The notes under the pieces were generated by a model, which worked only from the letters and a program-made list of their open reading frames with translations, made no database searches and was not told the DNA's origin. A stretch of DNA of 63,449 nt, the filler included, from Globobulimina sp. (taxonomy: Eukaryota), in assembly GCA_003354225.1 (NCBI GenBank). It is 31 parts of 31 records of this genome, joined end to end, with 100 filler letters (N's around TTAATTAATTAA, not from the genome) between each part and the next. Parts side by side here need not be neighbours in the genome. Positions count along the whole stretch, not along the records: positions 14,361 to 16,311 come from PIVH01010271.1; 30 more parts are not named here. One strand, 5' to 3'. The translations under genes were made by a program, and so were the position numbers. Numbering within the stretch: the stretch's first letter is position 1; each line of letters begins with the position of its first letter. Below are positions 1 through 16,311 of the stretch, piece by piece.

Positions 1-94
1 GATTTGGACTGCTCCAAGGCATTCTTTTTAATATCTGAAATGAAAATGTAGCAATACACCCCCTGGTCGCTACTCAAACAATCAAACTTCAACC

Positions 95-1802
95 ATGGCA
101 GCATTATTTCTTTCAGTTGCTATAATCGCCAGTGCAACGGCGCAATTTGCAACCACCGAAACAGACGATCCATTCGCAGCATTCTCGGGAGAACTTGAAC
201 CAATGGATTGGATCTGGATTGTTTACGCCGTGATTGCATTATCATTATCATTGTGTTGCATAGTGCCAAAGATTGGTTTGTGTAATGCATGGTGTCAAGA
301 AGAAAAATACGACGCATTAAGTAAACAATGCTATGATCAAATACTAATTGCACGCGGCTACAATGCCGAACAAACCGCAGTCGGTGATCGACGACCATTG
401 TCATTATTAGTTTTACGGCAAGATTTAAAAGAAAAACAAATATGGCATCATGACTGGAAAAGAGATTTTGTGGTCTTTTTACGCAACGAACACGCCCTAT
501 TTTCGACCTGTTACAGCCATCCGGACCATCCATTTTCGCGTAGGGACCGTCGATGCATTTTACTCTCTGTCATTTTGTTGGATTTTGGCGTGGCTATGGC
601 CATCACGTATGGCTTTACACAAATTAAATTGTCGGAGGGAGTGACGTTCACTGTCGATTTTTTAATCTCATATATTTTCGGCGCTATAATGAGTATTCTC
701 GAATCTATATTGGTTTCATTTGCTGTCTGTGCTGCTGTAGAAAGTTATAATTTCCATTGAACAATGTTTTACATTTAAAACAGTTTAAATATGCTCTAAG
801 ATTTTGTCGGTTGGATATAATTTGATACCATATTTAAACTGTTTTTAATCACATTTAACTGCACATTTTCTGTGCTAATACACCGCAGAATGTCCGAGTT
901 GTATCCGTGATCTGTGCAAATGTTGCGGTACAATGGTAATTACGTCAGTTTTATGCTGGGCAGTGGTCGGATTTACAGTGGCTATAATTATCATTATTTT
1001 GATCGCCAAAGAAGATAATTCCTCTGCGTTCTGGGAAGTGTTTGCTTTGAATTTCTTCGTCGGTCTGATCCAAGCGTGGTTTTTAATCGATTTAATTATA
1101 ATGATATTGCAATTCCGGAGCAGTTGGAAAGAAGCACATCCTCCGCCACCTGGAGCGGAGAGGGAGGAGCTTGAAAAGAAAAAGAAATCGACGGCTTATC
1201 GGTGCTTGAAATGTTCCTTTGTGGTTTGCTGTTGTCCGATATGGATGTTATGGCAATGCTGTTGTTCAAAAGGAAAGAAAAGTGATCCTTATGATGATGG
1301 GCAGGATGATTTTGGTGTGAATTATAAGGAATATTTAAAATGGAAGAATGGCGAAGAAATTGTGGATAGAGATTTGCCGCAGTCATATCATGCAATTTCT
1401 ACTGCTGGAATTGAGAGGAAATTACAGAAGGCTGTGGATCAGAGAGTAGATGCTGTAAATCAGAAGGTTGACACTGCAAAACAAGGAGTTGTTAAGGTAG
1501 TATACACCGTGAATTACATAATGGAATTTATTTAAATTGAGTTGTATATAGCTTGATATTATGATAAATGATATAAATTAAATTCCATTATTTATATTAT
1601 GGTGCTCTACTTTTAGACGTATGATGCAAATGTGGCGGGTTTGCAGAAGAGCCAGGATGACTTGAAAAAGAAAGGTAAAATGTTTGGTAATAAATGGAAA
1701 GCAAAAGCAATGGGAATGCAAATGAAATTGGGTAAAAAAACAGGTGATGATCAAAAAAACATTAATTCTGAGGATGTTGAACTTGTTGTTGGAGATAAAT
1801 AA
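95..1802 (+). CDS. Multi-pass membrane protein with signal peptide; exons about 95-743, 889-1496, 1617-1802
   Basis: GT-AG introns 744-888 and 1497-1616 join the ORFs in frame to TAA 1800-1802; motif EHALFS..HPFSRRDR resembles polycystin-type TM segments (weak). Confidence 0.65.
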
Positions 1803-1952
1803 GGCTTTCTTTTGTGTGTAAATAATATAAGCCAATGATTGATATTATCTGAGAATAAATATAAGTACTTAGCTAAGTTTTGTATATAATATTGAAAATT
1901 ATTGTTTGTGCTTAGAAATCATGACAACCTCAGTCGTGAGGATTAATAGACA

Positions 1953-2052
1953 NNNNNNNNNNNNNNNNNNNNNNNNNNNNNNNNNNNNNNNNNNNNTTAA
2001 TTAATTAANNNNNNNNNNNNNNNNNNNNNNNNNNNNNNNNNNNNNNNNNNNN
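1953..2052. other. Artificial contig spacer N44-TTAATTAATTAA-N44 (first of 30; recurs about every 2050 nt up to 61401-61500)
   Basis: Identical 100-nt block with six-frame stop linker; contig lengths decrease 1952 to 1949. Confidence 0.99.
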
Positions 2053-3432
2053 TAAAGATATATTCCATGATTGAGCATATCCATTAACAATATCACCATT
2101 TAAAAGATCAAAACTATTTTCCATCCATGAAATTAATAAACTACTTGAATTCTGCAATATATTCATACAAAATGAATACCAAAAATCTCTGCCATCATTG
2201 CTATTTACAAAATAAACATTATTCAATACCTCCACATTCCATACATCATTGCAATCATCGTATGCTAATTTATAGACAAACCCTGTAATACTTTTCATAT
2301 ACGACACGACCACCAATATATACCGAATAGCAGCACTTCCAATCGATTTAATCTCTGTTACTGCAGCATCATAAATAATGTCATAATCCATTGCAACATT
2401 CATAACAGTTACAAACGAATCCATTAAGTCCGTGTCAAATACATTTAATCCAAAGCCATCCACCATATTAAACATTAAATTCAATTTGTCATTCATGGGT
2501 GCTTTGAATAATGAAATGAAACAGCATTCGTTATACGATTCAGTATATATTCTTATCGTATCATAAACAGAAACATTGGAAAGGTTCACTGTTTCTGCTG
2601 TTTGTATATCAAACATAATCACAGTATCTTTAACCTCCAAACCAGAATCAATTCCATTATATTCTGCTAAAACATAACCAATGCTTTGATTTTTGGCATC
2701 CATATAACTCATTAAAAATAAGCTATCCTCGATATCAACAGACACAGAAAAGGTATTACTGCCCACATCCATCTCTGTATTGGTAAAGTTGAACAAATCT
2801 CGGTTTAATACGACAACAGTACCATTTAAGTCGAGTGTGGAATATTTGATGGCAAAGTTAGTCCAACCATTATCTAAACGGAGCGCATTGATCCAGCTTA
2901 CAACGTAGCCATCATTCATACATTGCACATTGCCACCTTCATCAAAATAACTATGAATATATAAATCAGTTACCATGGTTTCCTCGATTTGCCAATATGG
3001 CGCATTGGCTTCATCATCAAATAAATCGCAATCAATATAATTGCATCCACCGCAGCAGGATTGGTCAGAATAGCAAGTGAGAATATCGCCTGTTTTGGGG
3101 GATTGACAGGTTGTTAATGTATTTGCGCGCGTATCGAATGCGATGAGATGCGGTAATTGTTTGCTTAAATTGTTGGATGCCACATCAAATTGTTGGATTG
3201 ATTGATATCATTGATTATACACGTTCGAGTCTGTAAAATTTGTTATCATTTGACTGAACCAATGATAATAAGAAGCATCTGGAGCCAAATAATTTGTAAA
3301 TGTGCATTTATTATCAAAATAGCCAAGACTCGTAGTCGTAGATAATAAGTCGACAGGTGTTGTTGCCGTAAATTGGATGGTGTCTGAATTGCAACATAGT
3401 AATTGAAAGAGAAAAAACAATAACATTGCCAT
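2053..3432 (-). pseudogene. Secreted protein gene (3' truncated) with a single in-frame TGA at 3210-3208
   Basis: ORFs 3208-3432 and 2005-3183 share a frame: ..VYNQ*YQSIQQFDVASNN..; hydrophobic N-terminal signal. Confidence 0.55.
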
Positions 3433-3557
3433 TGGTAAATATTTTTCGAATTAAGAATTTTACTCAAGCTGAACTGCTGTGGCTTAATTAGAAAAATATT
3501 TTTAAAATATAGAAATGAATATGCGTGATACGTGTACACTTGTCATGATTCATTATA

Positions 3558-4004
3558 TTATAACCAGGTGTGCTCTGATGCCTGTTTTGCATTGAATCTC
3601 TCCTTTTTATCAATATTCAATAATTTTTGTACCAAATCTTTTGCTTCATTTGATACATTAATCCATAATGGACCTTGCATTTCATATTCACCATTAACTA
3701 TCATGTCACGCAATGCTTTCAACCAACTGCCAGTATCATTGTAATCTCTTCGCGCCGCATGAAAAGGCGGAGCGCCACACAACATAATATATAACACAAC
3801 ACCAAGTGACCACATATCAACTTGTGTGCCATACATTTGTTTTAAAATCATTTCCGGTGCAATATAATAATTATCACCAATTATCCCTTTCAAACCACGC
3901 TTCGGCACAATTTCCATAAATTCATTATTCATTACAACAAGACAGATAATAACTGTTTTAATATTATTTTCACTGAAAATTCATCCAAACCACCACCAAT
4001 TTCA
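3558..4004 (-). pseudogene. CAMK-type protein kinase C-lobe fragment lacking the HRD-DFG segment
   Basis: YIAPE, VDMWSLGV, GAPPF, VSNEAKDLV..ERF..HTWL; upstream out-of-frame LDEFSVKIILKQLLSVLL (subdomain VIa) abuts the activation-loop sequence at about 3933. Confidence 0.7.
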
Positions 4005-4184
4005 NNNNNNNNNNNNNNNNNNNNNNNNNNNNNNNNNNNNNNNNNNNNTTAATTAATTAANNNNNNNNNNNNNNNNNNNNNNNNNNNNNNNNNNNNNNNN
4101 NNNNACATAAATCTATCCGCCAGACCCATCAAAACCTTATCCAAAAACACACAAAAAGCGCAATCCAAACCCGCCCTAAATACA

Positions 4185-5907
4185 ATGGACATTTCCTACC
4201 ATGACAAGAGATATAAGCACCATCAACAACGACAATCTTATTCCAATACAAAGTCCAAATCACGCTCCAAATCCAAATCCAAATCAAAGCGTTCCAGATT
4301 TAAAAAACGAGTCTCTGCTCCCATCATTTTACCGACCTCCACCACGCCATCGCTGTCCATCACTGGTATAAAATCTCAATATATATTCTATATTATGTGA
4401 TTTGTATATTTTGTACACAGGCTCAGCAACAGCAAATTTAACAAATGTAACAACTCCATATTATAGCAATCTTAATCACAGCATCAATTCTGACTTATTT
4501 TTGGACGAAAAGGAGATCAACAAAATGATCCGTACAAGTCGTCGTATCTCGAAATCGCGACCCAGAGCGTACTCAAATATCCGTTTAAATTTCGAGAACA
4601 CGCACAGTCTCCGCACAGTGCACAAGGATAACGATAGCGATTCGAGCACCGACTCAGACGTAGAAGAGGAAGGCAAACACGATTATCACGATACTTTATG
4701 CAAGTATGGCTACGTTGAGATTTGTGTGATTGCTAAGTCATTGCAAGGCATCGTGATCAAAGCGCGACCAATCAATAAAAGCAATAATGTGGCGGTCATC
4801 ATTAAAATAACGGATCGCAGTCTCCACGCCAAGAAAATCAGCAATAAGCACGGCAAGTCCTTGTCTGTGGAGGAGGACATCATCAAAGAGAAGAAATTAT
4901 TGATGTACCTGACCGCTAACAATGGGCCTCGAGAATTGGTGAAGTTTTTGGGCTTTTTTAGTGACAAACACAACTATTACCTGGTGATGGAAAATGGTGG
5001 CTCAGATTTCTTTGATTGGATCGTAAAGTGCCACAAATGGATTCGTGACGGAAAGTTGTCGCTGAAACAATGGAATTTGTATATTCACGATCTGATGCTG
5101 CAAATCATTAAATTCATAAAATGGCTGCATTGTAAGATGAATGTGTGTCATTTGGACATCAGTTTGGAAAATATGCTGATCAAAAATAATAAGTATAAGT
5201 CTGATGGAAGCGGCGGGATTCGGCTATCGCGGAAGATGCAAATCAAAATCTGCGACTATGGCTTGGCGGAGTATTTCAATACGGAAACGAATGGCTTTTT
5301 GTGTCGGAAATATGTGGGGAAAACGCACTATAAAGCACCCAAAGTATATGGTAAGAAGCACGCGTTTGATGCGCGGAAAGCAGACATTTGGAGCCTGGGC
5401 GTCTCCTTTTTTATGATGTTGATCGGTGCGCCGCCGTATAAGTTGCCGACGGAGAACGACGACCACTTTCCGCTGATTCGCGAAAATAATGTGATGGGAA
5501 TATTGAAGCGTTGGGGGAGAGACCATTACATTAATAAGAATACAGAGGTTTTGTTGAATAATATGTTGAATATTAATGAAGCGGACCGGTTGAATATATA
5601 TGATATCGAACAATGTGTGTTTATGAGCATGAAATATAACGCTTGCGGTGGGCGCCAGGGACCATTTAATATTGCTAAGAGAGCGAAAAAAAGTAAACAG
5701 AAAAATAAACATAGACAAAATAGAAAACCATCGAATCCGATTCATTGTAATATTATGGCGACGTACCACGATAAAGGCGCGTTGATGGAGTATCCAACTG
5801 AACGTACGAAAGGAGGCAATAATCATAATATATTTCAGCATCTTGTGATGTCACAAGAGGATGGACAGCTATTTCGATACAGAAAACGTAAACTTACGTC
5901 TACGTGA
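4185..5907 (+). CDS. Ser/Thr protein kinase (HLDISLEN / YKAPKVY type); intron 4366-4420
   Basis: IIK, CHLDISLEN, ICDYG, DIWSLG motifs; 55-nt GT-AG intron joins the 4185 and 4402 ORFs. Confidence 0.9.
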
Positions 5908-6156
5908 AATATATTTATAATTTATTCTATATATTTATATTTATTATTTTGATTGTTTTTAGTTTTTGAATTATTCTTTAATTAACTTTTTTATTTTTTT
6001 ATGTTTTTCATAAACTTTTTTTTCCACATTTTTTTATTTTTAACTTTTGCCGTCTTNNNNNNNNNNNNNNNNNNNNNNNNNNNNNNNNNNNNNNNNNNNN
6101 TTAATTAATTAANNNNNNNNNNNNNNNNNNNNNNNNNNNNNNNNNNNNNNNNNNNN

Positions 6157-8107
6157 AAGGCTGTCCAAATACTACCTATAATTATTCCAGTACCAATCCA
6201 AATGATCCAAATAGTATTTATCACTGTCATAATGGCACATGGTATGATTTTATCTATATTCTCATCCTTGCACTCAAAAAATATACATTTTCATGTTGCG
6301 TTTTTGCGTATAACTGACATATATGACGTGTGATATATATTATATATAAACAGGATATTAAGGACCTCGGGTCGTTTAGCAGACTGGCAAGACACTTATG
6401 GCCGTATAGAAATATGGGAAGTGGATGACAATGATATTAAATGGTTGCAATTTAGTTTAGAGTTCAATTGGTGGAATAGAAGTTGTTTTATCATCGACGA
6501 TGACCCCGAGACACTCGAGGTAGAAACCATCGATTGCCCGGTCTTACCATTAACCGGTACACAAGAGCAAGCCGCTTATTTTGAGTTTACAATCCCTAAA
6601 AAATACGGCGATTCGCGTACGGCGCCATTAGTTGTGGTATGGTATGATATATTGTCCATACCTTATTCGTTAAAACCAGAATTGGACTATGAATATCTCA
6701 ATTTTACATTATACGTACCGACCCAAGGCGTCTCTTTTGGTTTAGACGACGCGATGCAAACCTTTCGCCCTGCACTCGTTGCTGCGGGTATATTATTTGC
6801 ATGTTTTTTAGCCGTAATGTTATTATCCTGCTTTGTGAGTGGTGACAAGAAGAGAAAGTCCGATTTTATGATCGATACTCGTAATTTAAAGACCACCTTC
6901 CGTCATACACCCGAAACTATCATTGTCCCGCCGTCAGAAATTGAAAATCGAGCGAGATTTAGCTGTGCCAGACATGGGCCGTGGTTATTAGTGGTGTTAG
7001 TGGCCAGATTAATTTATATGTTTATCTTTACCTTTACCTTTTTTGGGTTGGCTTTCACCGCCGTCAATCAGGAGCATTTTGACACGTTGAACCAATACGA
7101 TATATTTGCTGTGGGGAGAGATGCCCAATTAAAGGAGCAATCGCAATTTGTGGAGGTGCATTATGCGAATGAAACCGCTCGGATGGAGATGGAATTAGAA
7201 ACGCGACAGCTCCATTGTCAGGAGGCATATCTCAACCAAACCCTATTACGCTTTCTCACCGGTATGAAAAACCAAGTGGAATACCACAACGATCAGATGA
7301 ACAATCCCATGGGTAACTTATCGCTCAATTTTAGCGCTTTTAAGGAGATCTTTGTCCAAGGCGATGGCCTGACGGCCTGCAATTTAGTGGATGGTGCTAT
7401 CGTATGGGTCAATTCCAAGCAAACGCAAATTGTGTACACACCCGACATCACGCAAACCATAGTAAATTATAGTTCGCCGACCAACGCGACGTATACACAG
7501 ATTGTGCCGGGCAATTTAACTGCGTTGGTGGGAGATGGCTATGACACGTCCTTCAGCAATTTCAGTGAGGTTCAGAACGTGTTGGGCCCCGCCTGTGAGC
7601 TGGCCACTTGGTGCTATGGTTGGGGCTTTGTCAACCGCGATGGCAGTGACCCAGCATTTTATGTCATGTTGAACGAAATGGGCGACCCTGTGGTGGAGGA
7701 AGGCGTCTCCGGCATTTGTTTCGGTGCCGTCAACTTCGAGGCGGAGTTATCTTTTTTGGCCTTCAATTCCTCGTATTTTGAAGATTACGCCGATAAGTTG
7801 AATCAACAGTACTTGCAAGATTTCCAATCGTATGCCGATGATATGTACGACACCTTATCCGGGCTATGGAGCGCCATGAATGACTTCCCCACCAACTTTA
7901 ATTTCTCTGCAGATGGAAAGACGCAAATCTTTAACTATGACAAAAACATAAATAATGAAGCCGGTGCCGGTTACTCTTTCTCGCCGGCTTACAAAGACTT
8001 TCGACCGGGCGGCAGCGATGCCAATGGCACCCTGAAGGCGGATTGGTTCTGGGATTTGGACATCGCGTGCGAGGACTGCCCCAAAGGCAATTTCACGCAG
8101 GCGGCGT
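6157..8107 (+). CDS. Uncharacterised membrane glycoprotein fragment (at least 2 TM, many N-x-S/T sites)
   Basis: Long ORF open to the contig end; two hydrophobic helices; probable intron near 6243-6353. Confidence 0.6.
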
Positions 8108-8207
8108 NNNNNNNNNNNNNNNNNNNNNNNNNNNNNNNNNNNNNNNNNNNNTTAATTAATTAANNNNNNNNNNNNNNNNNNNNNNNNNNNNNNNNNNNNN
8201 NNNNNNN

Positions 8208-10158
8208 GTCAGATGCACAAAAATTGAAAGAGAGAAAAAATATAAACTGGATAAAGCAAAGAAAACAAGAACCAAAGAAGAAAAGAAATATCCAACAAGA
8301 CTTCAACCCAAGAGGAAAGCCAAATCGAAAACGATAGAGGAGAACCCAGAGGTATATAAAGAATCGAATTATAAATCAAAATATAACAAATCCAAAAGTA
8401 ACAGTCTTCTGACTTCGGTCTTAGAGACTGTACTAGAGGATGATATAAAACCTGTGATAAAACCTGTAATTACGGTTGGAGGAAACCAAGAAAGAATAGA
8501 AAATCTCAAATTAAAAGCAGAAAAATTAAATTGCCCCAAAAAAGTTAATGTAGAATATGTACCGCTGGGTCTCGATAAAATGTATGCATACCCAATAGAA
8601 GAAAAACTTGAAGAAAGTCCTCCCACTATGACGAATGTATGTACAATTGCTGTAGGTACAAATGCAATATGTTCAGACGTATTACATAGGGGTAGAAATC
8701 TGCTGGAAATAACTGAAAACCGTAGGGGCATATGGAATGAGTATAGAGAACATATACCAATTATTGATAGACCTGAATATATTAGAACACCTTATTATAA
8801 AAAATCTATATTAGATCAGAATAATGCGATAGAAAATTCTGATCATGAACATATACCAATTACTGATAGACCTGAATTTACTAGAACACCTTATTATAAA
8901 AAATCTATATTAGTGCATGCTTTCGACGAATGTGATAAAGATCTGAAAAATGCGATAGAAAAATCTGATCATGTATGTACTCAAAAGAGTAAAACACCGG
9001 AGGCAATATGTGACGGTATAATGAAGAGACGAGAAAATTATAAATCGATTCAAGTACAAATTGGCACGAGGCCAAATGTAGATAGACCAGAATTTATTAG
9101 AACTCCGGGTAAATATCTTGAACGTACACACGATCTAAAAGATGCATTAGAAAATCCCATAGCGGTGCAAAGTCTAAATGACAATATAACGAAGTCTAAA
9201 TCGATAACATGCCATGACAAAGAAATATCAAGCAGGCAAGAATATATTAGAACTCCTTATGCATGTAAATATGCTGATAAACAGAAACCGGTCAGACATA
9301 AAGGTCGGTCAGTTAAAATAAAAGAAAATATACGGTATGATGTAAAAACCCAAATTGAGGCAAAATTAGACTCCTCTGCGGGTTATTCACACTGCCAAGA
9401 CTATGTAGAAAACAGTCAATTAAACGAGAAATATTTATATAAAATAAATAAAATTGATAATGAACACGATTTAGAAATAGCAAAAGTCCATAGAGACAAA
9501 CTACAAATTAATTTAAATTATTTATCATTATTAATTAATAATTATAAAGATGGGCGCGGAATTGAATTGACGGAAATACCGGTCTCTGCGTCAACTAGTC
9601 ACGGTCCAAATTTTCACACAACAGGAATTGAAGAAATATACAGTAACCAAGACGGGATAAATTCGGTAGAACAACACGTACACGATGAAAATGTAATGTG
9701 CGCAGAAAAAGGAAAAATAGAAAATTCTGGAATCATTTTGGAAGCCGACGACGTACACAAACGGCAGCGATCAAGTAATTTGGAAGAAAGAATTAAATTG
9801 TTGGAAGAATTCATCGAAAAAGAGCCAAAATTGGACGAAAAAAGGGAAAGAAAGCCGGACACAAAAGAAGGCAAAGAAGATCGTCATCAAATAGTAAGTG
9901 AATTTAAATTAAAATTTGAGCGTCATAAATTAGAAAATTTAGTAGAAAATTCAGATTATTATAAATTAGAAAATTTAGTAGAAAATCTTGTAGAAAGTAA
10001 ATTTAATTTAATTAGAACTAGAATATATAAAAACGCTAAAATGCACTCTATTACTGGGAGAAAGGGATATTCCTCTACCCGTACTAAAAAGGGAAAACTT
10101 AAACCAAAATCTAAGTTAATTAAAAAATTCGAGAAAATTGCTCGAGATGAAGAAGAGA
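8208..10158 (+). CDS. Intronless K/E-rich ORF fragment with repeated DRPE(Y/F)IRTPY motif; function unknown
   Basis: One frame open across the whole contig; 99-nt internal duplication starting 8748 and 8847. Confidence 0.6.
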
Positions 10159-10258
10159 NNNNNNNNNNNNNNNNNNNNNNNNNNNNNNNNNNNNNNNNNN
10201 NNTTAATTAATTAANNNNNNNNNNNNNNNNNNNNNNNNNNNNNNNNNNNNNNNNNNNN

Positions 10259-10728
10259 ATATATATATATTACATACTGCGGATGGACAATATGAGCCTT
10301 TCTGTGTACATTGCATCATACAGTACATATCTGCTGGACAATAATAGCCAGGACAACAGGCTCTTGTGTATGGGTAATATCGTTGGTAACAAGTTCCATT
10401 TTTTGTCATATTCCATAGTTGATTGTTATTAAATGGATATGGCGGTTTTGCTGAGATATTGATTGGATTAACATACATAAAACCACTCAAACACGCTGAT
10501 ACTTGAAATGATGTGGAACAGATTGATCCAATGGCGATGTTGCTGAGGTGGTCATGTTCATTGCAAATTGGAATTTGAGAACATTCTGGGTACAAATTTT
10601 TATGTCATAGCAGATATTAATTAAGATGGTAATATTTAGACTTACCTTCATGTGATGGTGGCGGAATATTGCATGTTATATTGGATGCATTTGCAGGAAC
10701 TGTTTGACAGAAGGGGCTGATTGGCATC
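10259..10728 (-). CDS. Cys-rich extracellular region resembling the N-terminus of plant-type ABCG24/28 transporters (fragment)
   Basis: ACCPGYYCPADMYCMMQCTQKGSYCP resembles the CCxGFFCP..CMIPCPLGSYCP pattern; GTAAG donor at 10645. Confidence 0.5.
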
Positions 10729-10909
10729 TTCCCCTCAGTCTAAAATAAAGTTTTTTTGTTGGTAAAAACATTAATTAGCTAGCCAGAAATGACGGATTAT
10801 AGTTAAAACATTCAAACGCATACAGTATAATTTGTCAAAAAAAGAAGAAAAATTAATGTAAAATAACAATCAATGTGACAGAGAGGACAGTCATAAGTTT
10901 TACTAAGTA

Positions 10910-11847
10910 CTAACAAGTCGGTAAGTCGCCCCAACACGTCCCACTACTTTCAACTGCAAAAAATGTCGATGCTAATAAGGAAACAAAATAGCAAATCGAT
11001 AACACCGCAAAACTAATTTGTATCCATTTCACTCTATTCGCCATCCATGATATTGGCAACGTGGCCGTATTAAATGCAAATCCTAACATTATGCCAGAGA
11101 GCCAGCCACCTAAATGGGCGAAATTATCAATGCCGGACATTGAGATTCCAATCATAAATATGATAAATAGCCATGTTATCATAGTACACATTCTTGGACA
11201 TGGCTGCGGTAAAATGTCCCTATTATTCCAATTCAATAATATCCAGGCCATATAAGCGCCGATTATGCCCAACAATGCACCCGAGGCACCCACCGATATT
11301 GAGTCCGCTGAGCATACGGAGGATAATAATGTCGCACCAAATGCAGTCTATGATTATGTCAGTGATAAATTTTAGAGGTTACGGCAATTCGCAACAAAAA
11401 ATGCAAGTCACTTAACAGCAAAATAAAATGCTGCCATTCTCCACATTCCCCAATGTAACTCGCACGTATATCCAATCATAGTTTGCGAGACTAAATTGGT
11501 AAATATGTGCAATATGCCCGCGTGTAACAGTGCGGGCGTTAAAAATCTCCACACTTCGCCTGCTTGAATGCATGGTAAATATTTGGCGCCCATCCATTTT
11601 AAGCACGTGGCCGATGGGCCAGCCATATCATTCCCAGTTACAAAGGCACCACAAAACCACAACTGGCCCACTACTAATTCTGTGATGAACACAAGGATTT
11701 GGATCACCGATATTACAAAAATGAAGGATTTGGGCGTCCAATTGGGGGCTAACACTTTGTTTATTGGTGGATACATTGAACCGCCGGCACCGCCGCCACC
11801 TGCGCCCATCATAAAGGGACTCTGCCCTTGCGGTGGTCCTGTTCGTT

Positions 11848-11882
<35 letters not shown>

Positions 11883-11968
11883 TGTTGTTGTTGTCTCATT
11901 GCTTGTTGACGTTGTGCGTTGGGATTTGGCATTGGTTCCACATCTCCAAATCCACGAATGTTCGCCAT
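10910..11968 (-). CDS. Rhomboid intramembrane serine protease with N-terminal polyQ; intron 11416-11348
   Basis: WRFLTPALLHAGILH..N, catalytic VGASG, AHLGG; splice gives FYFA|TAFGATLLSS. Confidence 0.93.
11848..11895. repeat. (CAG/CAA)n polyglutamine tract in the rhomboid gene
   Basis: tgttgctgctgctg.. run on the + strand. Confidence 0.9.
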
Positions 11969-12309
11969 CACTCACTTCAATCTTTCAACTATTTGCTTTA
12001 AAAGTTTTGCTTTACTTAGAGTAAGTGGCACATATTTCAGAAACCAAAAACACACAAATGAGTGATTGTGCTCCGTCGAAGATCTTATCCACAAATGTCA
12101 CCATTATATATGGTGTGTTCTACGGATTATTATTATTAGTGATCAGTATTTATTCATTTAATTATTTGATGGAATTTGATGCCAAATTTCAGCGATCCGG
12201 ACGTTTCAANNNNNNNNNNNNNNNNNNNNNNNNNNNNNNNNNNNNNNNNNNNNTTAATTAATTAANNNNNNNNNNNNNNNNNNNNNNNNNNNNNNNNNNN
12301 NNNNNNNNN

Positions 12310-14260
12310 ATTGGGTAATCATGTTCTTATAAAACCATTGCAGGATTTGTAGCATTCAGAATTCACGTTTATTGTTGGTGCCGTTTCGTAAAGTGTTTCT
12401 CATGGATTGGAGTGCTTTTTAGCGCAAATTTGATGTACGAACGTATACAAAGCGTTAAATCAAAAAGTGAATGCTACAAAAGATGTAATTCGTATATATG
12501 ATGAGGATGACAGCTATCATTTTGGATTTAATAGCACCCATATTTTTCATTAGACAAATTCGTATGAGATGGAGATATAGATATGAATTATTCCATTTTA
12601 TTGCTCTTTATATCCATACCTAATCATATTTTAATTTTCATAGAATTCCACTCATACATTCCCTTTCAAATAACCCTTTTTCCATAACTTTATACAAATA
12701 TTGCTCCGTGATAACGTTTCCATAAGTTTCCGTATAATAATAAATAAAACGTCTAACTTTGACCATGAACTTTTTCATCCAAAAGCTTGGCCGCCAAATT
12801 TTTAATATCCATATTATTATTCTTTATCATCTAAACCTAATATGGAATGATTTATAGCTCAAAGCAATTTCTAAATAATTTGTTCTGTATCCATCGATAT
12901 AAATCACGTCCATATTATCCGCAGCAATGATTACAAGCCATTTCTACAGCTTTTAGGTGCTTTAGAAGCATTTCGATGGATCCATGCTCGATTGAGTAAC
13001 TTCTTCAGGTTTTTTTGTGATGTTTGTGTGAAAAGTTTAATCCAGCTCAAGCATGGCACGCATGGGCGTGATGAGAACTTGTGATTGGAAATGGATCATG
13101 GATGAATTTGAGGATGCTACATATAATTCTTTATTTGATTGGACATATTCATTGGATGTCGGATGAATGTATTTTGATTTAACGCGCTAATTCGCACATA
13201 TAAAAAATGTACGTAGCACCAGAAAAGTGTAACAATGGAACGTGGAGGATATGAGAGTGGAATCAGTGGATGATATGAAAGTGGAGGGTATGGAAGCAGT
13301 GCGCCAGTAAAGAGACAGAAATAATGCGTATGACAAAATAATGCGGATGCGAGAAATAATGCAAACTGGATATTATTGACGAAAAAGTAGAGATTTTTAT
13401 GGATATAACGTAGGGAAAATGGATACTTTTATGGTATAAAAAGATTGGTAAATGTATATATAAACGTATATTGGATGAGGACGATAGGAATTCTGGCAAC
13501 ACTTTGTAAATCAAACTTGTTTGCAAGGTTCTAATTTCAACTTTAATTATAAAATTCTAAGATTTGCGCATAAATGCTGCATATTTTCTAAAACAAATGA
13601 CGTTCTCATCGTCAAGATGTAAATGTCAGCAACTAAGACCACTTAAAAACTTGAACAATCGAGCATGGAACCATGGAATGCGTCTAAAGCGCTCAAAATC
13701 ATTACCAATCGCATCTAATGATACTGTGGATCTAATAATGGATTTTTATATTGATGGAACGATAACTATTTATTTTGAAATTGTATTATCATATAAATGG
13801 GACCACATTGGATTCAGATGATATTGAATAGGAATATCGATATTAAAAAAAAGCCCCCCAAGCTTTTAATCAAAAAATGCATTGGTTTCTGTTGGCCTTT
13901 TTATCGCAGATTCTATGGAAACGCAAGGAAAGTTCTTGAGAAACGGAATCTAAATAAGTCGACAGAAATCGATGCATATTATGGAGATGTATGAGTGGAA
14001 TTGATTGAAACTGAAAGAAATAGTTAGAGACACACATAAAGGTTGTGTCTAATCAAAAAAATGGCTGATTTGGCAAACAAAAATATCGTGGTATTTTTTT
14101 GGCGCATCACCGAAGGGGAAAAATATGGGTGTAGGTCGTGGCAGCTATCAACGCACACCAAACGGATAAGAAACACACTTTACGGTTTGTATATTGCTTT
14201 TGCAAAAAGACATATATAGAAATTGAATACCCAAATAAATCACATCAATGCCATGGTATA
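12310..14260 (+). pseudogene. Probable heavily decayed coding sequence
   Basis: No long ORF; purine-rich + strand reads as protein-like in stretches interrupted by scattered TAA/TAG/TGA. Confidence 0.3.
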
Positions 14261-14360
14261 NNNNNNNNNNNNNNNNNNNNNNNNNNNNNNNNNNNNNNNN
14301 NNNNTTAATTAATTAANNNNNNNNNNNNNNNNNNNNNNNNNNNNNNNNNNNNNNNNNNNN

Positions 14361-15741
14361 CTACTGGCAAACAGATTGACCGCACTGCGCCCGAATGTTG
14401 ATATACATTGGCAATTTTTTGCAATGAATTGACATTATTATATGCCCGAATTGAGGCTATCAAACTGTTGAATAATTTTGCCACATTTTTAAACTCTTCA
14501 AAATCTTCAAAACTCGTCACTTCCATAACCGTCACACCATACTTTATCACAATTGCGTTCATATCATTTTTTATTTGATATTTGTCTTCTTTGTTTCTGA
14601 CCAAATCATATTTGTTTAAAACAATAATCATTGGTTTACGATATGAATAATTATTACCATTTTTCACCAAATCAACAGTATCATACACTTCATTCACTGA
14701 CTCTTTTCTTGTTGCATCACACACAAATGCATAAGCATCAAAACTGTCGGTCTCAGTTTGATACATATCAACATTTATTACCTCAATCACGACATCAATC
14801 ACTGAGATAAAGCCCAAACATTCATTGTTAAATTTTTCTGTATTATCAGCGCCTAACTTAGGTTCCGGAGCTTTGAATGGTTGTTCATTTGTGATGACCT
14901 CTTTAAAATATTTATTTGAGTTGTAATCATTTGTATATTTCTGTGCTAATGAACTTTTACCCACGTTATGACCGCCGAGCATTGCAATCTTTATAGTCAT
15001 TGTATCTCCATCCTCCTCTTTTCCTTTTGCGTCAATATCGGTTTTATTTGCAGCATTGGTGCTACGTTTTTTATTGCGTCCACAACAACTACATCCATCA
15101 CTACTTTTGTTTGATTTTTGATGCTTATTCAATGCACTTCTGATCAATTCATCAAATGCATTCTTTAAATTATCTTGGGTCAAAGCCGAAATTTCCATAA
15201 ATCCGTATCCATAATAATTGCAAAAATCCTGCGCTTTTTTTTGAAAAATATGTCAACCAAAAACCAGGTATATATAGGAAATAAAACAATACCTTCCATG
15301 GTGGACACATGTCTGTGTTCTTCCAAATCACTCTTATTCCCCAATATTACCATAGCAGCCTCAGGAACATGATGTTGTATCTCTGGAATCCATTTACTTG
15401 CAAGGTTCTCAAAAGAAGACCGTGAGGTTATGCTATACATCAATGCAAATACATCTGTTTGTGGATAGGACAGCGGTCTCAATCTGTCATAATCTTCTTG
15501 ACCTGCAGTATCCCACAAACCTGAATATTTCGAATCAAACTTTTTATTACAAAGGGCAGCATACATAGTTAAATATGGTACCCAAGTTTATCGGCTTGCC
15601 ATCAACGAATACATTGGCAGAGTAATTGTCGAATACAGTCGGAATATAGTCACTGGGGAATGCATTGGTTGTATAGCTGATGAGTGTACAGGTCTTGCCG
15701 GTGGCGCCATCACCAACAAACACACATTTTATGTTTTGCAT
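14361..15741 (-). CDS. RAC: Rac/Rho-family GTPase fused to a second Ras-like GTPase domain (3' truncated); introns 15581-15521 and 15292-15234
   Basis: [49 protein letters not shown]; continues without a stop into [18 protein letters not shown]. Confidence 0.88.
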
Positions 15742-15796
15742 AGTGAAAACTGTCAAGAAAAGATCGCTGATCGGAGTGGTCGGATTTTTTATATCT

Positions 15797-16311
15797 TCAA
15801 ACATATTGTTTCATCATAGTCCATGCTGCCTTGCAATATTCATAGTATTTTGAGATATTTAGTCCATAACTACTGAGTGCAAAGGGTGGATTCACTTCTA
15901 CCAATGCCCATTTCCCATTATCTAACAATCCGATATCAATTACGCAGTGACTGAAGGGATTAATGTCCATGATTTCATTCAAGAAATCAATCGAAGGCTC
16001 TTTTGATTGTATTATTACAGAATACAAAACATAAAGACTTGATTCTTGCATTGCAAATATTTTGTTATCGGCAATAAATAATCTGTATTCATTTACAAAT
16101 TGCACCACCTCACATAAGTATACTTGTTCATTTTTACATATATTTGAAGATAAATAGTCCAAATCACAATTTTCTGTCACTTTTGTGGCTTCAAAATCTT
16201 TATTGTTACCACACGGTTTAATAAAGAATGGTTTCTGTAAAGATAAACATTGACTAAAATATATTTTTTCTATTTTCCGGTTGTAAAATATTTTAAAACA
16301 ATTGGGATATG
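15797..16311 (-). CDS. ATP-grasp (DUF4343/R2K-type) protein, 5' truncated
   Basis: [39 protein letters not shown]. Confidence 0.75.

Follow-up and report, generated by a model that had tools for sequence, protein, structure and literature searches.

A Rac-like domain and a degenerate Ras-like domain share one open reading frame in Globobulimina sp., probably as the N-terminal part of a larger foraminiferal membrane protein

The window analysed here (the whole stretch of 63,449 nucleotides from Globobulimina sp., assembly GCA_003354225.1) is a series of contigs of ~1951 bases, one of which, PIVH01010271.1 (positions 14361-16311, 1951 bases), carries on its minus strand a gene whose product opens with a Rac-like GTPase domain and passes through a linker rich in Cys and basic residues into another, degenerate Ras-like domain, hereafter G2. 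The gene runs off the contig at 14361, so the "tandem GTPase" of the original prediction is only an N-terminal fragment; the elements lie at the coordinates given for them, but 14361, taken at the time as the boundary of the feature, is the end of the contig and not of the gene. An ATP-grasp open reading frame ends 55 nt upstream of the Rac ATG. The features of the contig are as follows.

16311-15797, minus strand: R2K.2-type ATP-grasp open reading frame, stop at 15799-15797 (Pfam R2K_2, E 6.8e-25)
15741-15582, minus strand: exon 1, with the ATG at 15741, G1 (GDGATGKT) and switch I of the Rac-like domain
15581-15521, minus strand: intron 1, 61 nt, GT..AG, skipped by X2, X6 and X7 contigs
15520-15293, minus strand: exon 2, with G3 (WDTAGQE), switch II and G4 (NKSD) of the Rac-like domain
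15292-15234, minus strand: intron 2, 59 nt, GT..AG, skipped by X2 and X7 contigs
15233-14361 (contig end), minus strand: exon 3
15233-15130, minus strand: start of exon 3, with G5 (EISAL) and helix alpha5 of the Rac-like domain
15129-15001, minus strand: linker, 43 residues, basic and Cys-rich, including [18 protein letters not shown], with CSCC at 15082-15093
15000-14440, minus strand: G2, Ras-like and degenerate by profile against KRas and by AF2 with Foldseek
14950-14976, minus strand: G1 motif of G2, GGHNVGKSS
14752-14781, minus strand: G3 site of G2, lacking DxxG
14605-14616, minus strand: G4 of G2, NKYD
14512-14523, minus strand: G5-like motif of G2, EVTS
14440-14475, minus strand: helix alpha5 of G2
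14439-14361, minus strand: short connector, then the opening residues of the first WD40 repeat ([13 protein letters not shown]), aligning where the WD40 part of P0002 and P0008 starts

The gene is genuine, spliced and transcribed. Contigs from three public runs (X2, X6 and X7) omit precisely the two short GT-AG introns that had been predicted, with joints at 15233 to 15293 (59 nt skipped) and at 15518 to 15580 (cut +2, 61 nt skipped), and both skipped stretches end in CT..AC on the plus strand. Depth in X2 is 2.06 in the bin that mostly covers intron 2 versus 9.05 in the adjacent bin. Another run, X1, retains intron 1 in its record 7 and therefore behaves as DNA. That X2, X6 and X7 derive from RNA we infer from their intron-free contigs, their recorded kind being "?" for X2 and a guess, "RNA?", for X6 and X7. 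Once spliced, the coding sequence comprises 420 codons with 0 stops and reaches the contig end still open; 213 open codons would arise by chance with a probability of ~7e-7, given the composition of the contig (34% GC, stop probability 0.0645 per codon). Substitutions among the runs are split between synonymous (17/33) and nonsynonymous (16/33) in the scored set, with 38 further ones outside it, which may be taken as weak evidence of constraint on the coding sequence.

The Rac-like domain and G2 lie in one open frame. Record 24 of X7 covers exon 2 through exon 3 to 15004, while records 12, 10/11 and 9 of X2, overlapping by 30 nt, cover 15819 to 14361 and extend 156 nt beyond, and the linker is tiled by DNA-like as well as RNA-like contigs. 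None of the RNA contigs on its own extends from the Rac exons far into G2, and continuity is given by the overlapping contigs together with the assembled transcripts of other species. Besides the two introns, no joints are listed in the run contigs, so neither a stop or splice after the Rac domain nor a chimeric join is seen. Indels in the linker in other runs (+6, +3 and +3 nt) are every one in frame, two of these variants carrying an extra Cys.

The first domain retains G1-G5, T35 and Q61; GDGATGKT, the T of [19 protein letters not shown] and EISAL can be read directly. The Pfam Ras profile (PF00071, 162 positions) is matched by exon 1 over positions 1-50 (E 1.7e-12), by exon 2 over positions 52-125 (E 4.7e-24) and by exon 3 over positions 129-160 (E 8.4e-10). 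When the 75-residue piece from exon 2 was compared with solved structures, 43 of the 60 best listed matches were Rac1/2/3 (E from 2.6e-27) and 17, ranked after Rac, were Cdc42 (E 4.5e-25); among these matches the domain appears nearest to Rac/Cdc42, not to Ras or Rab. The start of exon 3 aligns with residues 153-181 of Rac1/Cdc42. Residue 69 of exon 2 corresponds to Rac1 residue 123 and residue 10 of exon 3 to Rac1 residue 153, leaving 16 residues in the window protein against 29 in Rac1 (positions 124-152), and hence the Rho insert, typically 13 residues within the G4-G5 interval, is missing. Intron 2 is located at the site of the insert without coding for it, and the insert is absent from a related protein, P0002, as well, whose residues 5-163 fit Ras profile positions 1-160. 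In addition, G4 reads NKSD in place of TKxD, and a CAAX prenylation box is missing, the frame staying open for >240 codons past helix alpha5. The domain had been described as a complete and canonical Rac: the G-domain is indeed complete, but in lacking the 13-residue insert, TKxD and CAAX it is not a canonical Rac.

Where a hypervariable tail and CAAX box would otherwise stand, there is the linker, which reads as originally described and leads without a stop into the second G-domain. Judged by the window protein and two orthologues, which have 3 Cys in 43 residues, 7 in 41 and 6 in 45, respectively, its Cys-rich character is a conserved feature, and lipidation of the linker is plausible.

At the level of profile and model, G2 keeps the Ras fold. 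Profile A1, built on G2, matches KRas across the whole domain (positions 4-189, E 4.8e-11), and the best 60 of its 572 matches are all KRas or HRas (E from 4.8e-11). The AF2 model of G2, made from a 5-sequence alignment, is of moderate quality (pLDDT 63), and its best Foldseek matches are Rab27a, MRas, KRas, HRas and Rem2, with a probability of 1.0 and target-normalised TM values of 0.53-0.75 to Ras/Rab structures. In the alignment to KRas the motifs of G2 fall on G1, G4 and G5, while DTAGQ finds no counterpart, in line with the motifs and the lost DxxG reported originally. DxxG is missing from 5/5 aligned sequences, and GK is followed by S, R, G or H in 4/4 sequences with a P-loop, on the basis of which G2 is probably a non-switching pseudoGTPase; its switch-II region varies in length and sequence among orthologues. 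GxxxxGK is nevertheless retained in the 4/4 sequences covering that region, and in [N/H/T]KxD neither the K nor the D varies (5/5), so G2 may bind guanine nucleotide, and pseudoGTPase is a call made at the level of sequence; the G5-like E-[VT]-[TS]-S is retained in three orthologues. As the term is used in PMC12490416, a pseudoGTPase does not hydrolyse GTP and may or may not bind nucleotide, class i doing neither. A recent tandem duplication of the Rac domain was considered as the source of G2 and is excluded, since the score of G2 is 16 bits against the adjoining Rac domain of its own chain versus 46 bits against KRas.

The unit of Rac-like domain, linker and G2 is shared with proteins of Nonionella stella (P0002 and P0007) and Bolivina argentea (P0008), named as in EukProt and predicted from transcriptomes, which are 66-67% identical to it. 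Thus the fusion of a Rac-like with a degenerate Ras-like domain, which the original prediction had proposed to look for in foraminiferan transcriptomes, occurs there in two species as well as in the RNA-derived contigs. The spliced coding sequence matches residues 1-417 of P0002 at 67% identity over 421 columns, exon 1 being 89% identical to residues 1-54, and P0002 begins at the Rac Met. Two domains are not the whole protein, as had been supposed, because the contig cuts the chain: P0002 matches Pfam Ras (E 1.6e-62) and WD40 (E 1e-28), with many propeller models over residues 400-800, and in the orthologues ~400 residues of WD40 are followed by 6-7 hydrophobic 19-residue windows (P0007, P0008 and P0004). 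From these predicted proteins, the chain of the relatives continues through a WD40 propeller to a putative multi-pass membrane domain of 6-8 helices, for a total of >1100 residues. Helix alpha5 of G2 is separated by ~15 residues from the first WD40 repeat, of which the window covers just 13 residues; the loose end of an X6 contig past 14363 supplies ~10 more in an open, WD40-like frame that, translated by eye, resembles P0008. Matches to the WD40 and membrane parts were found in no other contig of the window.

The family is sparsely represented. Only 5 of 1.84 billion representative proteins match G2 at E <= 0.001, and a word-indexed protein search with exon 3, restricted to near lengths, gave 614 candidates and 0 at that threshold. 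At longer lengths, the protein search with profile A1 returned P0002, P0008 and P0004 only. A search with residues 60-330 of P0007 gave 59 matches, 57 of them through the WD40 repeat alone (11-52% query coverage), the G2 part being covered by P0002 and P0008 only. Scans of metagenome contigs with profiles A1 and A2 produced 314 and 186 pattern matches, respectively, and none was confirmed. Among solved structures, WD40 matches dominate for P0003, a paralogue with a putatively Ras/Rab-like first G-domain, and do not place that domain in a family. The membrane domain has nothing above the Pfam cut-offs (best DUF6404, E 0.0053) and an AF2 model of low pLDDT (42.8), while an Atlas feature search places it with unnamed eukaryotic clusters (score 0.95); PF06011 "TRP", found there in 25% of cluster members (score 0.90), stays a lead only, because Pfam gave it no support.

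Based upon these features, we consider it probable, at roughly 0.7, that what lies here is the coding sequence for the cytosolic N-terminus of a large, lineage-restricted membrane protein belonging to a foraminifer (or a close relative), consisting of a Rac-like domain, a Cys-rich linker, the pseudo-Ras domain G2, a WD40 propeller and a membrane domain, and that this protein functions as a scaffold. The Rac-like domain would be its sole true GTP switch and, instead of being prenylated and cycling in the cytosol on RhoGDI, would be permanently tethered to the membrane, both by the C-terminal membrane domain and, probably, by S-acylation of the Cys string. G2 would have ceased to switch and would act as a fixed element, structural or for docking, through which the Rac switch is connected to the WD40 platform; this platform in turn would recruit partners. 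Taken together, a sole Rac switch, a membrane tether and the docking of G2 to the WD40 platform would make the whole protein a self-contained, membrane-resident Rac signalling scaffold. Service to the very dynamic cytoskeleton and membrane of foraminiferal pseudopodia is plausible but speculative.

Several other readings of the same evidence have to be weighed. The strongest of these, although we regard it as unlikely, is that G2 is alive as a non-canonical GTP/GDP-binding domain, comparable to RGK proteins or the second domain of Miro, and that two switches, each regulated by nucleotide, thus follow one another in the protein. RGK proteins are unusual in their G3, and the G-domain of Rem2 is among the best structural matches of G2 (TMt 0.75, rmsd 3.6); the retained GxxxxGK, the invariant K and D and the G5-like motif of the three orthologues also speak for it, whereas the loss of DxxG throughout, the variable residue at the Mg-binding Ser/Thr position after GK and the divergence of switch II among orthologues all speak against it. 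Somewhat less likely again is a larger product or a bicistronic mRNA: the R2K.2 ATP-grasp upstream, predicted to be a peptide ligase that modifies proteins, would be carried on the Rac mRNA and, in at least one strain, form one polypeptide with the Rac-like domain. Such ATP-grasps belong to a family described as bacterial and phage-borne (PMC4431377). The one here would place a protein ligase of phage/bacterial type in a eukaryote. The ATP-grasp stop lies only 55 nt ahead of the Rac ATG, X6 and X7 also have the two adjacent, and record 12 of X2, which is spliced, extends from exon 3 past that stop to 15819, so that the ATP-grasp is possibly on the same transcript. Furthermore, at 15802 X2 is one base short (in 1 contig, at depth 9.05 of 9.05), and dropping this base joins both open reading frames: the 242 codons between 16309 and the exon 1 end then contain 0 stops. 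However, the deletion is absent from X1, X6 and X7, the lone depth-9 contig may be in error, the spacer of X6 differs by a length not divisible by three, the Nonionella stella protein P0002 starts at the Rac Met, and 23 open codons 5' of the ATG occur by chance about 1 time in 5. A further reading, a slightly longer shot, takes the protein to be a device found in Foraminifera alone, a "receptor plus G-protein" in one chain, in which a multi-pass membrane sensor or channel would act through a G-beta-like WD40 part and a frozen Ras-like adaptor upon the tethered Rac; in at least some strains the R2K.2 ATP-grasp would be transcribed or translated together with it and could modify the module or cytoskeletal targets.

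The remaining two readings concern whether there is a single protein at all. One open reading frame could yield two proteins, a free Rac-like domain and a G2-WD40-membrane protein, either by a restart at the conserved Met of G2 or by cleavage of the linker. T-M-[TQ]-I-K-I-A-M opens G2 in all three orthologues and the linker is weakly conserved and variable in length, which would suit such an arrangement, but internal translation initiation is uncommon on eukaryotic mRNAs, a freed Rac would be without CAAX, no stop codon separates the domains in three species, and every indel of the linker preserves the frame; we consider it improbable. As for an assembly artefact or pseudogene, with a Rac gene chimerically joined to unrelated sequence or a decaying duplicate, the suspicion comes naturally with a 1951-base contig from a fragmented assembly and with X1 and X2 contigs that break at 15020-15049. 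Those breaks are 30-nt overlaps at a two-allele bubble and no discontinuity, the identical join appears in runs of three studies and in the transcriptomes of two other species, and 420 codons are open, by which this reading is effectively refuted.

The membrane-resident scaffold that we favour has several partial parallels among known proteins. The first G-domain of Miro (RHOT1/2) is Rho-like and lacks the Rho insert. As described in PMC4100572 and PMC4810086, Miro also has two G-domains per chain, no CAAX and a C-terminal hydrophobic hold on the membrane. However, two pairs of EF-hands lie between its G-domains, as opposed to a 43-residue spacer here, and no EF-hand family was among all 9 Pfam families found for exon 3 (E up to 1). 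Moreover, Miro has a single tail anchor, whereas here WD40 follows G2 and, in the orthologues, precedes 6-8 predicted helices, and the first domain is much nearer to Rac1 than is that of Miro (E 2.6e-27 over 75 residues). RhoBTB and Dictyostelium RacA (PMC8305917) similarly combine a G-domain of the Rac lineage, without CAAX, with C-terminal interaction domains. Those of RhoBTB are tandem BTB domains, in contrast to the pseudo-Ras, WD40 and membrane helices here, and no BTB turned up in the Pfam listings, which cover 25 of 45 families for P0002 and all 9 for exon 3; the original view that neither Miro nor RhoBTB fits was therefore sound.

Other parallels concern the domains that follow. In p190RhoGAP (ARHGAP35/5), a G-domain is followed in one chain by pseudoGTPase domains, which are GTPase-like but devoid of the G motifs (PMC5593906). 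Yet that protein is soluble and ends in a RhoGAP domain, and its pseudo-domains are reported as non-binding, unlike G2, which retains G1, G4 and part of G5. ROCO proteins (LRRK1/2) carry a Ras-like G-domain within a large multidomain protein with WD40, as outlined in PMC5241559. The Pfam Roc profile matches the Rac-like domain of P0002 (E 1.8e-26) and scores 25.4 bits against G2, under its 27-bit cut-off. COR follows Roc directly in ROCO, whereas here just ~15 residues lead from G2 to WD40, and neither COR nor kinase domains were among the Pfam families listed for exon 3 and P0002 (25 of 45). Finally, EhRho1 of Entamoeba histolytica is a stand-alone small GTPase, unlike the Rac-like domain here, which heads a protein predicted at >1100 residues. 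What the two share is membership of the Rho family without the Rho insert helix, the hallmark of that family (PMC3641396 and PMC8305917).

We found no description of a Rac/Rho-Ras-WD40-membrane architecture, or of foraminiferal tandem GTPases, in the main texts of the open-access literature. The family is very small in present databases and annotation has so far missed it. Rho-family GTPases are normally small, prenylated proteins that shuttle between cytosol and membrane, and known multidomain exceptions are few, namely RhoBTB and Miro. In this protein, a Rac-like switch would be built into a membrane protein while lacking both the Rho insert and CAAX, the pair of features by which the handling of Rho proteins is defined. 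As far as we are aware, the pseudopodial networks of Foraminifera are among the most dynamic known. The protein may therefore be regarded as a natural experiment on what a permanently tethered Rac is capable of, on what pseudoGTPase domains are for, and on how Foraminifera have rewired cytoskeletal signalling. If the reading as a receptor joined to its G-protein were true, it would represent a new, direct coupling of membrane to Rac, without GEF-driven recruitment or RhoGDI cycling.

The fusion reported in the original prediction, a Rac domain joined to a second, degenerate Ras-like G-domain (G2), is confirmed in its core. Its description as a "canonical" Rac does not hold, and the "tandem GTPase" is incomplete, apparently representing the first third of a much longer protein. 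Rather than one genomic stretch, the 63,449-base window is a series of about 31 contigs, each roughly 1951 bases long, with N44-TTAATTAATTAA-N44 spacers at the joints; anywhere in the window, features touching a spacer are cut by a contig end. Because the gene is located on the contig 14361-16311, the coordinate 14361 marks where the contig, not the gene, stops. The following features were identified:

15741, minus strand: ATG start codon of the Rac-like frame, by direct sequence reading
15581-15521, minus strand: intron 1, 61 nt, GT..AG; removal needed to keep the frame
15292-15234, minus strand: intron 2, 59 nt, GT..AG; removal needed to keep the frame
15797-16311, minus strand: ORF containing a complete ATP-grasp domain of R2K clade family 2 (Pfam E 6.8e-25)

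The scripted spliced CDS contains 420 codons and 0 stops, and the chance of 213 open codons is ~7e-7 given the contig composition (34% GC, 0.0645 stops per codon). The Pfam Ras model is matched by all three exon pieces, which take up profile positions 1-50, 52-125, and 129-160 of 162, and the linker and motifs initially described, including the missing DxxG, are all present in the sequence.

Contigs from four public sequencing runs were compared with that of the gene, three of which (X2, X6, and X7) come from two studies other than that of X1. X1 behaves as DNA and may be the window assembly's own source; its record 7 spans 15288-16045 without a gap and retains intron 1. The intron 1 joint (15518->15580, cut +2) was found in X2, X6, and X7 and the intron 2 joint (15233->15293) in X2 and X7 only, both with CT..AC ends on the plus strand, and the introns are skipped exactly as predicted. 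The records list none of the three as RNA (X2 is labeled "?", whereas X6 and X7 are guessed as "RNA?"). Because their contigs are intron-free and X2 depth falls to 2.06 in the intron-2 bin, we infer that they derive from RNA. No joint besides the two introns is listed among those of the four runs, so the linker loses no sequence to splicing. X7 record 24 begins in exon 2, crosses the joint, and stops at 15004, four bases short of the Met codon opening G2. In X2, successive overlaps of 30 bases link record 12 (15819-15105, spliced) to 10/11 (15134-15020, two alleles) and these to 9 (15049-14361, with a further 156 bases), as would be seen for one path with an allelic bubble. Separately, depth in the RNA-like runs reaches 1032-1666 in the 15615-15680 bin and 279 for X2 in the 15351-15416 bin. 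The short, very abundant contigs at high-depth bins match only the most conserved Rac stretches and probably derive from ordinary paralogues of Rac with high expression, or from other organisms present in these runs.

The linker varies in length at 15065-15081, both between alleles and between species, and always in frame: X7 carries +6 and +3 insertions and one allele of X1 and X2 carries a +3 insertion. Two variants place an extra Cys next to the CSCC cluster, one through an inserted TGC and the other through codon 181 (GGA -> TGC), and the linker Cys count in three species is 3, 7, and 6. Among 33 scorable substitutions (38 others not shown), 17 are synonymous and 16 non-synonymous, most of the latter within the linker; as a sign of constraint, these counts are weak evidence.

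In the first G-domain, the best solved-structure match of the exon-2 piece is Rac1 (2.6e-27), followed by Cdc42 (4.5e-25), and direct reading finds G1, Thr35, DTAGQE, G4, and G5 all present. In the alignments, residue 69 of the exon-2 piece corresponds to position 123 of Rac1 and residue 10 of the exon-3 piece to position 153, leaving 16 residues in between vs. 29 in Rac1. The 13 missing residues are the Rho insert, which PMC8305917 describes as the most characteristic signature of the family, typically 13 residues in length, with Entamoeba EhRho1 as the known exception (PMC8305917, PMC3641396). The insert is likewise missing in the Nonionella stella orthologue. Furthermore, G4 reads NKSD vs. 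TKxD in Rac1 and the CAAX box is absent, because the frame runs on.

G2 lies much nearer to Ras than to the Rac-like domain beside it. A profile of five family members matches KRas and HRas across the whole G-domain (E from 4.8e-11), and the best 60 of its 572 matches are all K- or H-Ras. In an AlphaFold2 model (pLDDT 63, built from a five-sequence alignment), the beta-alpha order is that of a G-domain, and the model's Foldseek matches, at probability 1.0, include Rab27a, MRas, KRas, HRas, and Rem2. A recent internal duplication of the Rac domain is ruled out, since G2 scores 46 bits against KRas vs. 16 bits against its own Rac neighbor. Within the G2 alignment, GxxxxGK is retained and NKxD has an invariant K and D; DxxG is lost in 5/5 sequences, and the residue following GK, a Mg-binding position in Ras, varies between S, R, G, and H. 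On sequence grounds, G2 is a putative pseudoGTPase that may still bind nucleotide; class i of these is characterized in PMC12490416 as neither binding nor hydrolysing.

A full HMMER scan with G2 against 1.84 billion representative proteins returned only five at E <= 0.001. The best, P0002 (3.2e-79, 60% identity, 881 residues, matched at residues 206-417), is from N. stella, as is P0007 (1148 residues) in the same cluster, and P0008 (1066 residues; 66% identity to exon 3) is from Bolivina argentea, all as named by EukProt. Both species are foraminifera, and the anticipated fusion is present in each. P0002 begins with MQNIKCVF, as does the window gene product, and the spliced window protein aligns with its residues 1-417 in a single piece at 67% identity. 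Its order is a Rac-like domain (Pfam Ras 1.6e-62), Cys-rich linker, and second G-domain, followed by ~400 residues of WD40 repeats (WD40 1e-28, many propeller models) and a hydrophobic stretch. P0007 and P0008 reach further, with 6-7 strongly hydrophobic 19-residue windows, and a low-confidence model of this region has eight long helices. The last 13 residues that the contig encodes align where WD40 repeat 1 begins in the relatives, and an X6 contig loose end past 14363 stays in frame and resembles the next P0008 residues (translated by eye). Because the relatives and this loose end run on into WD40, the complete protein would comprise the Rac-like domain, linker, G2, WD40, and a multi-pass membrane domain. 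No other contig of the window matches the WD40 or membrane part. No Pfam family was found for the membrane domain, and an Atlas search lead to a TRP-like family is unconfirmed.

Two distant relatives were called by an intron-ignoring gene finder and their ends are not reliable. P0004 has an incomplete G2 followed by WD40, membrane helices, and an extended tail, and P0003 has the C-terminus of a first domain, linker, G2, and the WD40 start. Residues 1-70 of P0003 have a Ras/Rab-like, not Rac-like, end (ETSAK, read directly), and thus the G2-WD40 module may have been combined with different small GTPases. In a search of solved structures with P0003, WD40 matches dominate and the family of the first domain is not separated.

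The ATP-grasp ORF lies on the same strand as the Rac-like frame and stops 55 nt short of its ATG. Upstream, the ORF is cut by the contig end, and the part on this contig has no in-frame ATG. PMC4431377 describes R2K family 2 ATP-grasp proteins as bacterial and phage-borne, with a predicted role in joining peptides to proteins; among phages, the closest matches to this ORF are 4 jumbo-phage records at 26-28% identity. The spliced X2 record 12 starts in exon 3, includes the Rac ATG, and reaches 15819, beyond the ATP-grasp stop codon, and the two ORFs therefore share an RNA, given the inferred nature of X2. X2 also lacks one base at 15802, and with this deletion the ATP-grasp and Rac frames become continuous, with 0 stops in 242 codons; the deletion was not seen in X1, X6, or X7.

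Several known systems offer partial parallels. Miro likewise combines two G-domains with membrane anchoring, but has EF hands and a single tail anchor, while RhoBTB shares the Rac lineage and CAAX loss, but has BTB domains. p190RhoGAP similarly has a G-domain followed by pseudoGTPase domains, and ROCO proteins pair a Ras-like domain with WD40, but have COR and kinase domains. Pfam did not find the defining extra domains of these systems in the window exon pieces or among the families listed for P0002. In agreement with the original prediction, Miro and RhoBTB do not fit, there being no EF hands or BTB domains among the Pfam matches listed.

Beyond the architecture, splicing, expression, and motif status established here, with the runs taken as RNA from their intron-free contigs, a mechanism can be proposed. 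The Rac-like domain would be the working switch, presumably unable to cycle on RhoGDI because it lacks a CAAX box. The C-terminal helices would instead hold it at the membrane, with S-acylation of the linker Cys string as a probable further hold. G2 could then serve as a fixed adaptor between this switch and a WD40 platform, which would bind partners.

No description of the Rac-linker-G2-WD40-membrane architecture was found in the literature searched. The architecture is unusual and well supported, although protists commonly have domain fusions peculiar to one lineage. The protein can be placed among the multidomain atypical Rho GTPases, as a variant so far confined to foraminifera and a few other assemblies.
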